The position numbers were made by a program, and so were the translations under genes. The notes below the pieces were generated by a model, which did not search any database, had not been told where the DNA came from, and saw nothing but the letters and a program-made list of their open reading frames with translations. From an uncultured Clostridium sp. (GTDB lineage Bacteria > Bacillota > Clostridia > TANB77 > CAG-508), in the NCBI GenBank assembly GCA_948467495.1, contig CAOKEO010000002.1, forward strand, positions 7,649 through 71,648: a DNA stretch of 64,000 bases. The letters run 5' to 3'. This document shows positions 8,563-56,003 of the stretch, piece by piece; the stretch's first letter is position 1, and every line of letters begins with the position of its first letter.

Positions 8563-8782
8563 TTGCCAAGAGAAACGGTTCTTTCTGGCAATTTAAGTTG
8601 ATTTCTAATACTTATTAATATATAAATTTTTTCATTTGCCCCATTCTAAAAATTCTTACAAAAGTTTTCCAAACTTTTGAGAATTTTTGAACGGTCCCCC
8701 CGATTCCATTTCAAAATTTATATATTAATAAGCACTATAAAATTTTTAAATAATTGCCAAAAAAGACCGTCCCTCTTGGCAA
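8563..8782. mobile_element. Nested-palindromic MITE-like intergenic element (divergent member, ttgccaa-hairpin ends)
   Basis: The terminal about 29-nt inverted arms are ttgccaagagaaacggttctttctggcaa (8563-8591) and ttgccaaaaaagaccgtccctcttggcaa (8754-8782). An inner perfect 20-bp inverted repeat is cttattaatatataaatttt / aaaatttatatattaataag. A central long hairpin is followed by ggtccccccga. Confidence 0.65.
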
Positions 8783-8809
8783 TCGTGAAACGTAGGAAAG
8801 GAAGAAGAA

Positions 8810-9298
8810 ATGAAGGAAAACAAGAAGTTATCAAAAGAATCCATATTGCTAATTAGCATAGTGATTATCATTATTTTAATTGACCAAATACTTAAAATTT
8901 GGGTTCAGAGTTTAGGAGAAATGAGTATTGTTGCGGGGATATTAAATTTTAAGATAAGTCAAAATTACAGTGCAGCCTATGGAATAGGTTCTAATTCGAC
9001 TATTATGTATGTACTAACTAATATTGTTATTTTAGGAATTATCTTTAAGTTTATTACAACACAAAATGAATTTGTAGATAAAAAGTTAAAGGTTTTTTTG
9101 AGTTTTATCATAGCAGGTGGTATTTCGAATGTAATAGATAAAATAGTAAGAGGATATGTAACAGAATTTATTGATTTCGGACAAGTTATAAATTTACCAG
9201 TGTTTAATGTGGCAGATATTTTTATATTAATTGGTTGGGTAGCAATTGCTGGTATCTTTGCTTCCTTTACAGTGAAAGAATGGAGAAATAAAAAATAG
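8810..9298 (+). CDS. lspA: Signal peptidase II (lipoprotein signal peptidase)
   Basis: 162 aa with four TM segments, NYSAAYGIG and FNVADIFILIGW motifs, and conserved lspA-rluD synteny. Confidence 0.85.
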   Translation: MKENKKLSKESILLISIVIIIILIDQILKIWVQSLGEMSIVAGILNFKISQNYSAAYGIGSNSTIMYVLTNIVILGIIFKFITTQNEFVDKKLKVFLSFIIAGGISNVIDKIVRGYVTEFIDFGQVINLPVFNVADIFILIGWVAIAGIFASFTVKEWRNKK

Positions 9299-9346
9299 AT
9301 AAAACTTTATATAGAAAATTGATTTTAGAAAGGAATGTAGCAAAGT

Positions 9347-10255
9347 TTGGAGCGTTTTGTGATAAGAGAAGAAGATAAGGACCATCGAGTTGATAGTTTT
9401 TTAGCCCATAAAAAAGAAGGGCTTTCTAGAGTTACTGTTCAAAGATTGATAGAAGAAGAAAAGATATTAGTGAATGGAAAAAAAACGAAATCTTCTTATA
9501 AAATACAAGCGAAGGATAGGATAACAGTAGAAGAAGAAAAACCGAAAGAGATTGAATTGAAGGCACAAGATATTCCAGTGGAAATTATTTATGAAGATGC
9601 AGATATAATTGTTGTAAATAAACCAAAGGGAATGGTAGTTCACCCAGCCAATGGAAATCCAGATGGAACTTTGGTAAATGCTATTATGGCAATTTGTAAA
9701 GATTCTTTATCAGGAATTGGAGGAGAGATACGACCAGGAATTGTTCATAGAATTGACAAAGATACATCAGGAATTTTAATAATTGCTAAGAATGACAAAG
9801 CACATATTAATTTAAGTGAACAAATTAAAAAACATGAAATAGAAAAGACATATATAGCAATGGTAAGAGGAATGGTCAAAGAAAATGAAGCAACCATCAA
9901 TATGCCAATTGGAAGAAGTACGAGAGACAGAAAAAAAATGGCAGTAACGAAAAAAGGGAAAGAGGCAGTTACACATTTTAAAGTAATAAAGAGATTTTCC
10001 AACCACAATTGTACATTACTAGAAGTAAAAATAGAAACAGGAAGAACCCATCAAATTAGAGTGCATTTATCACAGATTGGTTATCCTATCATAGGAGATA
10101 CGGTATATTCCAATGGAAAAAATGAATGGGCTATTCAAGGTCAATGCTTACATGCTAAAAGCTTACAATTTAAACATCCAATAACAGGTAAGAAGATGTA
10201 TTTAGAAGCAGAATTACCAGCATATTTTCAGGCTATGATTTTGGAGATGGGTTAG
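9347..10255 (+). CDS. rluD: RluA-family 23S rRNA pseudouridine synthase (RluD-like)
   Basis: N-terminal S4 domain. Catalytic HRIDKDTSGILIIAKN and THQIRVHL motifs. TTG start. Confidence 0.85.
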   Translation: MERFVIREEDKDHRVDSFLAHKKEGLSRVTVQRLIEEEKILVNGKKTKSSYKIQAKDRITVEEEKPKEIELKAQDIPVEIIYEDADIIVVNKPKGMVVHPANGNPDGTLVNAIMAICKDSLSGIGGEIRPGIVHRIDKDTSGILIIAKNDKAHINLSEQIKKHEIEKTYIAMVRGMVKENEATINMPIGRSTRDRKKMAVTKKGKEAVTHFKVIKRFSNHNCTLLEVKIETGRTHQIRVHLSQIGYPIIGDTVYSNGKNEWAIQGQCLHAKSLQFKHPITGKKMYLEAELPAYFQAMILEMG

Positions 10256-10355
10256 CCTTGTGAGACAAAGGGAACTTAAATAATTTACATACAAGCTAGA
10301 AAAAACAAGTATTGAAGAAAAAGGAAGACAAAATTATGGATTAGGGGGGAAAAGT

Positions 10356-11072
10356 TTGGAATTTATAAGATTACAAAAATATTTAGCAGAAGCGGGAATT
10401 GCCTCTAGAAGAAAAGCAGAAGAATTGATTCAACAAGGAAAAGTTAAGGTAAATGATGTAATTGTAACAGAACTTGGAACCAAAGTAAACCCAGAAAAAG
10501 ATAAGATAGAATATGAAGGAAAAAGGATAGCAATAAAGGAAGAAAAAGTTTATATTTTATTAAATAAGCCTATCGGTTATGTGACAACAGCAAAAGACCA
10601 ATTTAATCGAGATTCTGTATTGGATTTAGTAAAGGTGAGACAAAGAATTGTTCCAGTGGGAAGATTAGACATGTACACATCAGGAGCCTTATTATTAACG
10701 AATGATGGAGATTTTATTTACCAAGTAACACATCCTAAGCATGAAATTGAAAAAAACTATACAGTTACAATAAAAGGAATTATTACCAAAACGACTATAG
10801 AGATGTTAAAAAAGGGTGTAAAAATTGAAGATTACGTTACAAGACCAGCTAAAGTAAAAATATTAAAAATAGAGGAAGAGAGAAATCAATCAAGGTTAGA
10901 AATTACAATACATGAAGGGAAAAATAGACAAGTTCGTAAAATGTGTGAAACAGTAGGACATAAGGTGTTAGCATTACATAGAAGTAAGATAGCAGGAATT
11001 GGCGTAAAAGAATTACCATTAGGAAAATGGAGATACCTAAGTAAAAATGAGATAAACCAAATTTTATCTTGA
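10356..11072 (+). CDS. rluB: RsuA/RluB-family rRNA pseudouridine synthase
   Basis: S4 domain (RLQKYLAEAGIASRR). Catalytic GRLDMYTSGALLLTNDG and KNRQVRKM motifs. Confidence 0.8.
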   Translation: MEFIRLQKYLAEAGIASRRKAEELIQQGKVKVNDVIVTELGTKVNPEKDKIEYEGKRIAIKEEKVYILLNKPIGYVTTAKDQFNRDSVLDLVKVRQRIVPVGRLDMYTSGALLLTNDGDFIYQVTHPKHEIEKNYTVTIKGIITKTTIEMLKKGVKIEDYVTRPAKVKILKIEEERNQSRLEITIHEGKNRQVRKMCETVGHKVLALHRSKIAGIGVKELPLGKWRYLSKNEINQILS

Positions 11073-11187
11073 AGATTGAAAAATGTTATAATTCACAGCT
11101 TAAATAAGTAATAAATTTGTATATAAAATTAATAACTGTGAATTTAACGAAAAAGCAAAAAAGCATTAAATTTTATCTTTAAGAAGG

Positions 11188-55109: not shown

Positions 55110-55116
55110 AACAAAA

Positions 55117-55521
55117 ATGAGGATAGAGAAAATGAAAATGGATAAAATAGAATGGAAAAACATAGTAAGTGGATATAAGCTGGTGATTTTAATTGGTATG
55201 GTTGTGATTTTAGGTTCTATGTATCTTAGTTTTAAGCGAGTTGAGCCAGAGAATGAAAGGAAGACAGCAAGTGGAATCAATGTGGTAAATACAAAAGTGA
55301 AAGAAGAAGAGGAAATCACAGAAGAAAATGCACGAAAGGCAGCAGTAGAACAATTTAAAAGATTAGGTGAAAAACGTGTTAAAAGTAATCAATTAAAGGT
55401 ACAAAAAATTGTAAGGAAAGAAGTAGAGTATTATTATATAACTTCTGAAAAAAATACATTAGAAATACAAATAAAGGGCGGGATGATAACAAAGATAAAT
55501 AGTGCTTCTGTAGAAGAATAA
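55117..55521 (+). CDS. Small membrane-anchored protein with a PepSY-like C-terminal domain
   Basis: TM segment LVILIGMVVILGSMYL. ITEENARKAAVEQFKRLGEKRV...VEYYYITSEKNTLEIQIKGGMITKI resembles a PepSY fold. The more likely start is ATG 55132 (RBS gagga). Confidence 0.45.
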   Translation: MRIEKMKMDKIEWKNIVSGYKLVILIGMVVILGSMYLSFKRVEPENERKTASGINVVNTKVKEEEEITEENARKAAVEQFKRLGEKRVKSNQLKVQKIVRKEVEYYYITSEKNTLEIQIKGGMITKINSASVEE

Positions 55522-55524
55522 TAG

Positions 55525-55557
55525 AAAAAAGGAAGAATTAATTTTCTTCCTTTTTTT
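55525..55557. terminator. Bidirectional terminator hairpin
   Basis: aaaaaaggaagaa-ttaatt-ttcttcctttttt between convergent genes. Confidence 0.65.
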
Positions 55558-55741
55558 CGTTATCTTTATCATTATCTTCTTTGGTTTTTGAGATTTTACT
55601 AGCTTCTTTAGGAATTACAATACTAGTAGGTTTTTTCTTGGCAGATTTAGGCTTAGCTACATTTAAGTGCTCATATACTGGTGAGATATCTAAACTTGAA
55701 CCATCCCCTGAAACTACTTCTATTTTCTTTTTTTCTTCCAT
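55538..55741 (-). CDS. Small lysine-rich hypothetical protein (67 aa)
   Basis: Strong RBS (aaacagggaggtatccttt) before the ATG. MEEKKKIEVVSGDGSSLDISPVYEHLNVAKPKSAKKK... No recognised family. Confidence 0.5.
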   Translation of the reverse strand: MEEKKKIEVVSGDGSSLDISPVYEHLNVAKPKSAKKKPTSIVIPKEASKISKTKEDNDKDNEKKEEN

Positions 55742-55829
55742 AAAGGATACCTCCCTGTTTTTATTGAAATCATATTATCATATTGGTTTTAAAAGTGCAA
55801 GAAAATTTCAAAATTTAAGTTTAGCTTTT

Positions 55830-56003
55830 GTAACGATTCAGAGGTGATATGTTTCAATTAGAAAGTTTCTATATTTTTTATGATGTAACAAATCGGGGGG
55901 GACCAGCAAGATTACAGTCTGTTATAAGATTACAGACTGTTTGCAGCTGGGAGTTACGAATAAAAAATATGGAAACTTTTATTGCCAAAAAACGAGACTT
56001 AAA
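55830..56003 (+). mobile_element. MITE-like repeat element (arms plus core), copy C
   Basis: The left arm gtaacgattcagaggtgatatgtttcaattagaaagtttctatattttttatgatgtaac is followed by the core aaatcggggggga ccagc...gcagctgg gagttac. The right arm is ataaaaaatatggaaacttttattgccaaaaaacgagactt, with a truncated terminus. Confidence 0.7.

Follow-up and report, generated by a model that had tools for sequence, protein, structure and literature searches.

Insertion sequences (IS) of the IS66 family have inverted repeats of 20-30 bp that start with GTAAGCG, and they produce 8-bp direct repeats (PMC11946415). A published IS66-type terminus reads GTAACCGTCCGGGCA (PMC12888890), and the terminal repeats of ISDge4, an element of the ISBst12 group, read GTAACTGCTCAGCA and come with a direct repeat of 8 bp (PMC12898284). 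Here we describe a family of short intergenic repeats from an uncultured Clostridium sp., seen in a 64-kb window (the whole stretch of contig CAOKEO010000002.1 that was analysed), which is chromosomal and has a G+C content of 30%. These repeats are a genuine, recently active and highly rearranged family of MITEs (miniature transposable elements with inverted repeats). We put at about 0.75 the probability that, as MITEs, they are short non-coding IS derivatives that depend for movement, in trans, on a transposase whose gene lies elsewhere in the genome. MITEs are not new as a category, and this family is unusually modular and changeable, though the kind of element is ordinary.

As in IS66 (ISBst12-group) MITEs, the elements with two unlike, IS-end-like arms are non-coding and 72-180 bp long; as in IS66/ISBst12 elements at large, their terminal inverted repeats begin with GTAA and they duplicate 8 bp of target; and like IS66-derived MITEs they are intergenic, present in many copies and variably present or absent between relatives. 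They differ from published IS66/ISBst12 termini in their low identity beyond GTAAC..TCAG and in that no cognate transposase was found here, and from IS66-derived MITEs in an extra nested palindromic core, which also occurs without these arms in other species. The REP, BIME and REPIN repeats of Proteobacteria are similar in being mosaics of a few palindromic modules with compensatory change in the hairpin, arranged as inverted doublets and singlets in intergenic DNA, often at gene ends. Unlike those repeats, the armed elements here have target-site duplications and long terminal inverted repeats, no GTAG motif is present, no RAYT gene was seen at the loci with gene calls, and the host is a Firmicute. 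Dense short intergenic repeats with long hairpins are also known as Correia elements in Neisseria and as RUP and BOX in Streptococcus pneumoniae; BOX too is modular, and the repeats described here, like all three, may adjoin promoters or terminators and affect their neighbors. Correia and RUP elements, which are IS630-type MITEs, duplicate TA, unlike the 8 bp duplicated by the armed elements here. To our knowledge, BOX elements have neither terminal inverted repeats nor target duplications, and we know of no sequence similarity between our family and Correia, RUP or BOX.

The analysis covered the window plus 9.7 kb upstream and 9.5 kb downstream, merged into an 83-kb stretch, and contigs or loci from the same species or relatives, to which we refer by L-numbers (L008, L014, L038 etc.). 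Several further samples contain identical sequence, as does the 119-kb contig ena:ERZ14864646 NODE_161. The 83 kb hold 11 elements and two solo hairpins, a local density of about one copy per 7 kb. Elements are named by letters: C-H, J and K lie inside the window, and three extra copies lie in the 19 kb of flanks, at window coordinates -4008..-3841 (A), -1569..-1499 (B) and 68728..69404 (I). They are about 72-222 bp long, contain no open reading frame (ORF), and are confined to intergenic DNA, each lying between ORFs or called genes.

The repeat family is confirmed as genuine, with copies related beyond chance at all ten coordinates. Blastn of the copies against the window gives pairwise identities of 81-97% over 30-118 nt. 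The 19-mer GTAACAATTCGGGGGGACC occurs three times, compared with 0.00 expected from shuffles, and TTGCCAA-N8-22-TTGGCAA also three times (0.03 expected). The terminus GTAACGATTCAGAGG, allowing up to three mismatches, occurs eight times (0.92 expected), although two of these matches are an internal look-alike and one (29240) is outside any annotated copy. When the entire window is searched, unfiltered, with a covariance model of the core, the model matches C, E, F, H and J, finds K weakly (E = 0.11) and matches nothing else, so the inventory of core-bearing copies in the window is complete. A preliminary description of this DNA had listed eight elements and both solo hairpins, all of which are present, and had proposed a dispersed family over one restricted to the window, as the three flank copies and the presence of the core in 18 human-gut contigs of related species bear out. 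The repeats might instead be local duplications, or chance similarity among AT-rich intergenic hairpins and terminators, and the solo hairpin at 59015, which has an ortholog in L014 and may be a native terminator, would suit that explanation. It is refuted for all but the two solo hairpins by motif counts far above those of shuffles, by copies outside the window and at unrelated loci of other species, and by target-site duplications; for the family, its probability is negligible.

The architecture of the armed elements is that of a mobile element with two distinct ends. A full element, such as F (29336-29516), consists of an outer arm of ~40 bp at each end, an inner inverted repeat and a central stem. 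The element termini read GTAAC.ATTCAG, and arms 1 and 2 share only the outer 15 bp, GTAAC.ATTCAGAGG, and an inner ~8 bp (AAAGTTT). Copies B, C, G and I carry the outer sequence GTAAC.ATTCAGAGG at each end; in F and A it is degenerate. Searches with hidden Markov models find exactly one arm 1 and one arm 2 in every armed element, so that the modules are indeed combined differently from copy to copy, as first described, but not freely. Two further points of the original module scheme need revision: its separate 'spacer' forms the 5' half of the inverted repeat that belongs to the core, and arm 2 holds only half of the TTGGCAA hairpin assigned to it.

Five copies are flanked by 8-bp target-site duplications: I matches at 8/8 positions (CTATTTTT), G at 7/8 (GAGTATTC / GAGTATTT), F at 7/8 (GTTTCTAT / GCTTCTAT, at 29328-29335 and 29517-29524), B at 7/8 and C at 6/8 (GATATCTT / GATATGTC). 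Among 200,000 random pairs of 8-mers from the same DNA, the probability of a match of at least 7/8 is 0.0016, and that of 8/8 is 7e-5. The duplication at B weighs less, because the end of that copy was picked by best match. With terminal inverted repeats, 8-bp duplications beyond chance, no ORF, copies beyond the window and empty orthologous sites, the label 'MITE-like' holds for the armed elements.

Individual copies show how far this plan has been altered. Copy C (16349..16500, plus strand) has arm 1, a short-form core (16370-16461, with its G-run on the minus strand) and arm 2. Copy D (18313..18371, plus strand) is a truncated element, a solo arm 2 with a remnant of the inner repeat. In copy E (21480..21625, minus strand), the core (21493-21617) has an enlarged apical loop, the G-run has decayed to GGAAAAA, and the arms have shrunk to GTAATTCAAGTTT. 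Copy F (29336..29516, minus strand) has arm 2, a full core (29377-29485, G-run on the plus strand) and a degenerate arm 1; the end at 29504 given previously is too short, the right arm being degenerate instead of missing. Copy G (34672..34743, plus strand) is a minimal 72-bp element in which arm 1 is fused straight to arm 2, with a putative por promoter ~25 bp downstream; copy B, at 71 bp, is likewise two arms joined directly. Copy H (55830..56003, plus strand) has arm 1, a full core (55870-55980) in the orientation opposite to those of F and C, and an arm 2 that lacks its last 12 nt, with the scpB -35 box ~10 bp downstream. An 18-nt deletion between direct repeats appears to account for the short form of the core in copies C and I.

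Comparison with relatives indicates that the family has been gained and lost repeatedly since the species split, as the pattern of presence and absence implies. Copies F, G and H are absent from the syntenic loci L038 and L040, at 85-87% nucleotide identity, and H is also absent from L039; at the copy G site, L038 has a single copy of the target compared with two in the window. In the closer relatives L042 and L043 (80-92% identity), element K is absent (L043) or present as a longer variant (L042), and the site of element J holds a solo hairpin (L043) or two hairpins without a core (L042). L042 and L045 lack copy C, and its site is outside the L043 contig. L044 and L045 have no copies, nor do relatives at the ProRS locus (84-89% ProRS identity) in 15-21 kb. 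Conversely, the ssb|560-aa and lspA|rluD spacers of L042 and L043 contain cores; those of the window hold no core, or just a one-arm remnant. Copies C, F, G, H and K are thus polymorphic between closely related species, which also carry others. The remnant in the lspA|rluD spacer (window 9298-9330) reads ATAAAAAATAGATAAAACTTTATA and is one arm of a core element that is intact in L042 and L043; that element was probably lost from the window by deletion between ATAAAAAATA direct repeats.

A second form of element, type B, has 31-nt hairpins (ATTGCCAAGAGG...CCTTTTTGGCAAT) in place of arms, of which ~20 nt are homologous to arm 2, GACG(G)TCTT(G)TTTTTTGGC(A/G)AT. The type-B element K (8562..8783, no strand assigned) has these hairpins as terminal inverted repeats, begins at the stop codon of the upstream gene, and has a diverged central hairpin that still carries the GGTCCCCCCGA motif; no target-site duplication was found around it. 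Element J (13017..13232, no strand assigned), also of type B, lies between convergent genes and has two exactly reverse-complementary 31-nt hairpins around a core (13065-13176, G-run on the minus strand). The solo hairpins, likewise unstranded, lie at 2888..2916 (ATTGCCAAAAAGATCGTCTTTCTGGCAAT, then T6), a terminator-like structure whose stem is common to the type-B terminal hairpins, and at 59014..59043 (ATTGTCAGAAGCGAGGAAGCTTTTGGCAAT, then T6), downstream of a small alarmone synthetase gene. Paired inverted hairpins alongside solo ones recall REPINs, and it is possible that the core and the type-B hairpins are REP/REPIN-like sequences that spread as single-stranded hairpins by means of a single-copy domesticated HUH (RAYT-like) transposase, with the arms belonging to an unrelated MITE by which they were captured. 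Hairpins kept intact by compensatory change have been reported for REPINs and occur here as well; core-only and type-B copies have no target-site duplication, and a conserved unpaired motif sits beside the stem. Yet the hairpins start with ATTGCCA and lack the 5' tetranucleotide GTAG/GTGG, no Y1 transposase (RAYT) gene is among the called genes of the loci with gene calls, in what is an incomplete genome, the armed elements clearly have 8-bp duplications, and the bulge motif resembles the outer terminus, which is of DDE type. On balance we find a REPIN-like origin decidedly unlikely.

The core itself is a nested palindrome of ~105 nt that in most copies lies between the arms. Its inner inverted repeat is TATATTTTTTATG.(A/T)GTAAC / GTTAC.AA.AAAAAATATA, and its center is an imperfect stem of 17-20 bp with a loop of 8-10 nt, symmetric save for a one-sided bulge, AATTCGGGGGG(G)AC. 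The bulge side reads GTAACAATTCGGGGG (conserved motif GTAACAATTCGGGGGG) and is identical to the outer terminus at 12/15 positions. From this resemblance, we infer that the bulge GTAACAATTCGGGGGG may be a third binding site for the protein that binds the outer terminus, which would explain its conservation. Twenty aligned cores have a mean column identity of 81%, with higher conservation in unpaired segments than in stems. Across the four helices of the nested hairpin, 95% of cells are paired and nine pairs have changed on both sides; this covariation is reached by 0 of 500 shuffles, and the number of such pairs in slid controls is 0-2. The core palindrome is therefore actively maintained, and covariation does not distinguish maintenance at the level of DNA from that at the level of RNA.

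A fold backed by covariation, unpaired segments more conserved than stems, and the proximity of several copies to promoters are what one would expect if the core were a structured non-coding or cis-regulatory RNA that is carried on the repeats by chance. Against this, Rfam gives no match at the gathering score over the window, and at E <= 10 two elements yield nothing but noise (miRNA, snoRNA); pairs of the G-U type (~15) and the A-C type (~12) are balanced, so that neither strand is favored; and orientation relative to genes is mixed, with three copies sense, two antisense and one between convergent genes. These three observations leave an RNA role without support. In addition, the core has been flipped between strains at one locus, shows no conserved promoter or terminator inside it, and is present or absent between very close relatives. 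We consider an RNA function highly unlikely.

The core has a wider distribution than the arms. A degenerate core pattern scanned against metagenomes found 18 human-gut contigs at ~9 loci; these are ~79% identical to the window where they overlap it and therefore come from other species, and the related contigs that bear cores are labelled human gut metagenome. At the core loci of relatives, it is the core that is conserved as a unit, and it is flanked by other GTAA-type arms (L020, L021, L032), by unrelated palindromic sequence, or by nothing of the kind. The presence of the same core between at least four unrelated sets of arms, across loci and species, would be explained if the core were an independent, hairpin-dependent element, constrained by its structure, that enters or grows from palindrome centers such as terminators and MITEs, flips in place, and uses its G-rich bulge as the recognition site of a possibly domesticated enzyme. 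It would also explain an inverted duplicate of 32 bp of native flank around an element of L042. There, at L042 6340-6665, the ortholog of window 8563-8782, 32 bp of the native right flank (upstream of lspA) are duplicated in inverted orientation on the left, which means either that the element landed in the loop of a native long hairpin or that the palindrome grew by copying its flank. We regard an independent core as unlikely. An integron attC site was also considered as the identity of the core and rejected, given a misfit to the R'/R'' consensus and the lack of a cassette array and an integrase.

Rearrangement of the core in place is evident from several comparisons, and loss of the core by deletion is frequent. 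Between the arms, the cores of H and I point opposite to those of F, C and A. Upstream of serS, the core is flipped between strains with near-identical flanks (L025/L037 vs L035), with breakpoints inside the 17-bp inner repeats, and at another locus a hairpin has been deleted between short direct repeats in two samples. An assembly artefact of this kind was rejected as the source of the inversions, since the inverted repeats involved (17-44 bp) are shorter than the assembly k-mers that the contig names suggest. A programmed invertible switch (inverton) that alters the expression of an adjacent gene is one way to read this: ~80 bp between 17-bp perfect inverted repeats have flipped between near-identical strains just upstream of the serS promoter, and both core orientations occur among the window elements (H vs F and C). 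However, a reading of the core alignment, which was not formally scanned, reveals no conserved promoter inside the segment, and no invertase or recombinase gene adjoins any copy. An unrelated 503-bp palindrome flips too, being inverted in place in the 98.5%-identical strain L009; flipping would therefore seem to accompany long inverted repeats generally in these genomes and does not resemble a dedicated switch. We consider a switch very improbable. The palindrome in question belongs to a second, unrelated, non-coding element of ~390-503 bp with perfect terminal inverted repeats of ~44 bp (CAATGCTGTCAACCTAACTGCAAAGCCC...), which occurs at L008 16459-16961 (window 68890-69392) and L008 13785-14172 (window 66216-66603). 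Copy I carries the 503-bp copy within its right arm, bordered by a duplication of 9-10 bp, TCTGAATAGT / TCTGAATCGT.

Returning to the derivation of the armed elements from an IS, two defining features point to an IS66/ISBst12-type transposase as the mover: an inverted repeat that begins with 5'-GTAA, and 8-bp direct repeats. The termini GTAACGATTCAGAGG and, in L032, GTTACTGTTCAGAT fit the IS66/ISBst12 pattern. Several observations weigh against this picture. The terminus is identical to that of ISDge4 at only 9/14 positions, and 8-bp duplications are also made by IS256, ISL3, IS6 and IS1595. No transposase and no full-length IS with these termini was found at the loci with gene calls or, by terminal-repeat scan only, in L020-L037. 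The arms of the window type were not found in the related species that have the core, and a search of 185,579 representative genomes with a 21-mer of arm 1 gave no real match, only a chance match in a Marinilabiliaceae metagenome-assembled genome. No target-site duplication was found at type-B elements or at the core-only copies in related species, and the mobility of both kinds of copy is indicated by presence/absence alone; some 'empty' sites, moreover, are clearly deletion remnants. TA flanks of the core-only copies in relatives are suggestive at 3-4 loci, where they are indistinguishable from the AT-rich background.

Other searches for a parent were negative as well. Pairs of GTAA...TTAC terminal repeats 0.6-4 kb apart, sought in all loci obtained, comprised no IS and only the second palindromic element, so the full-length IS with matching termini that was anticipated at the outset was not found in the sequences reached. 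Because of this and the 9/14 identity, we treat the assignment to IS66/ISBst12 as a lead. An IS256-like element of L014 was rejected as the parent, its terminal repeats (GAGTGTTAAAATC...) being unrelated, as was an Rpn-like PD-(D/E)XK gene near copy G, which is a separate insertion relative to L038/L040 and lacks flanking arms. A distance of 410 bp separates copy G from that gene, a PDDEXK_2 (Rpn/YhgA-like) nuclease gene at 35154-36068 (insertion at window 34760-36120). No match came from three scans of viral contigs, nor from blastn of copy F against plasmids and phages, and a search of the literature found no named family that fits.

The effects of the elements on genes look incidental. The preliminary description had the copies supplying terminators to adjacent genes, and this stands for the type-B and solo hairpins only: by their sequence and by a scan of 1-20000, hairpins of the form ATTGCCAA...TTGGCAAT followed by T-runs look like intrinsic terminators, and type-B hairpins with T-runs are predicted to be able to terminate transcription, but T-runs are lacking in arms and cores. 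Because L014 has an orthologous ATTGCCAA...TTGGCAAT hairpin, the one at 59015 may be a native terminator. There are -35 boxes 10-35 bp downstream of copies G and H and of the serS copy. The housekeeping genes of the window are ruvA, lspA, rluD, pflAB, pyrB, murE/mraY/ftsW/murG, holB, por, scpB, proS, dnaG and sigA; among named sequences, the closest to its ProRS are labelled 'MAG: Clostridia bacterium'.

Several further features of the window were observed. The small alarmone synthetase (RelA_SpoT-domain) gene at 58255-59006 is inverted relative to L038/L040 and in the same orientation as in L014, with no clear flanking inverted repeats. A 17-kb island (38271-55519) is missing from the syntenic L038 and L040, where a rubredoxin gene sits (with an HTH gene as well in L038); it encodes a 2612-aa RCC1-like-repeat protein, a CAP-domain protein, a cadherin-like/dockerin protein and a 1913-aa Big_3-repeat protein. 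In pflA (window 13245-13978, minus strand), there is a frameshift after ~75 codons (YIYPNRWCY... vs YIYPRGGVTISGGEP in L028), and pflB is intact. Split pflA calls of 131 and 88-93 aa in L042-L045 suggest the same break in several species; a pseudogene, programmed frameshifting and a recurrent error are all conceivable. Two adjacent ORFs in different frames (288-965 and 967-1518) make up a rarA/mgsA-like AAA+ gene, and two fragments (1664-2008 and 2260-2652) a TauE-family exporter gene; the same split ORF calls at 288-1518 and 1664-2652 occur in every same-species contig examined.

A mechanism for the MITEs that we favor can be proposed on the basis of the sequence comparisons. Deletion of the interior of an IS would leave its left and right ends as two unlike arms, and copy G has exactly this form. 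Insertion would duplicate 8 bp of an AT-rich intergenic target; the duplication indicates staggered cuts by a DDE-type enzyme and, together with the GTAA terminus, suggests that this enzyme is an IS66/ISBst12-type transposase. Each element is a set of nested inverted repeats and is therefore readily rearranged. If the inner repeats of 17-20 bp recombine, or if the template is switched from one to the other, the core could flip in place; the core or half of its hairpin could be lost by slippage from one short direct repeat to another; and the self-complementary 31-nt ends of type-B elements could collapse to solo hairpins.

Overall, we see this family as having invaded a small genome (1.3-1.8 Mb class) of uncultured human-gut Clostridia recently and in a lineage-specific way. 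At about one copy per 7 kb, such repeats could break or confuse metagenome assemblies, and their presence or absence, orientation and deletion state offer strain-resolving markers for gut samples. If the link to IS66/ISBst12 is true, the elements would be a compact substrate for the study of a poorly characterised transposition mechanism. With the terminator-like hairpins that they add between genes, and with copies within 10-35 bp of several putative promoters, the elements may also change the expression of nearby housekeeping genes.

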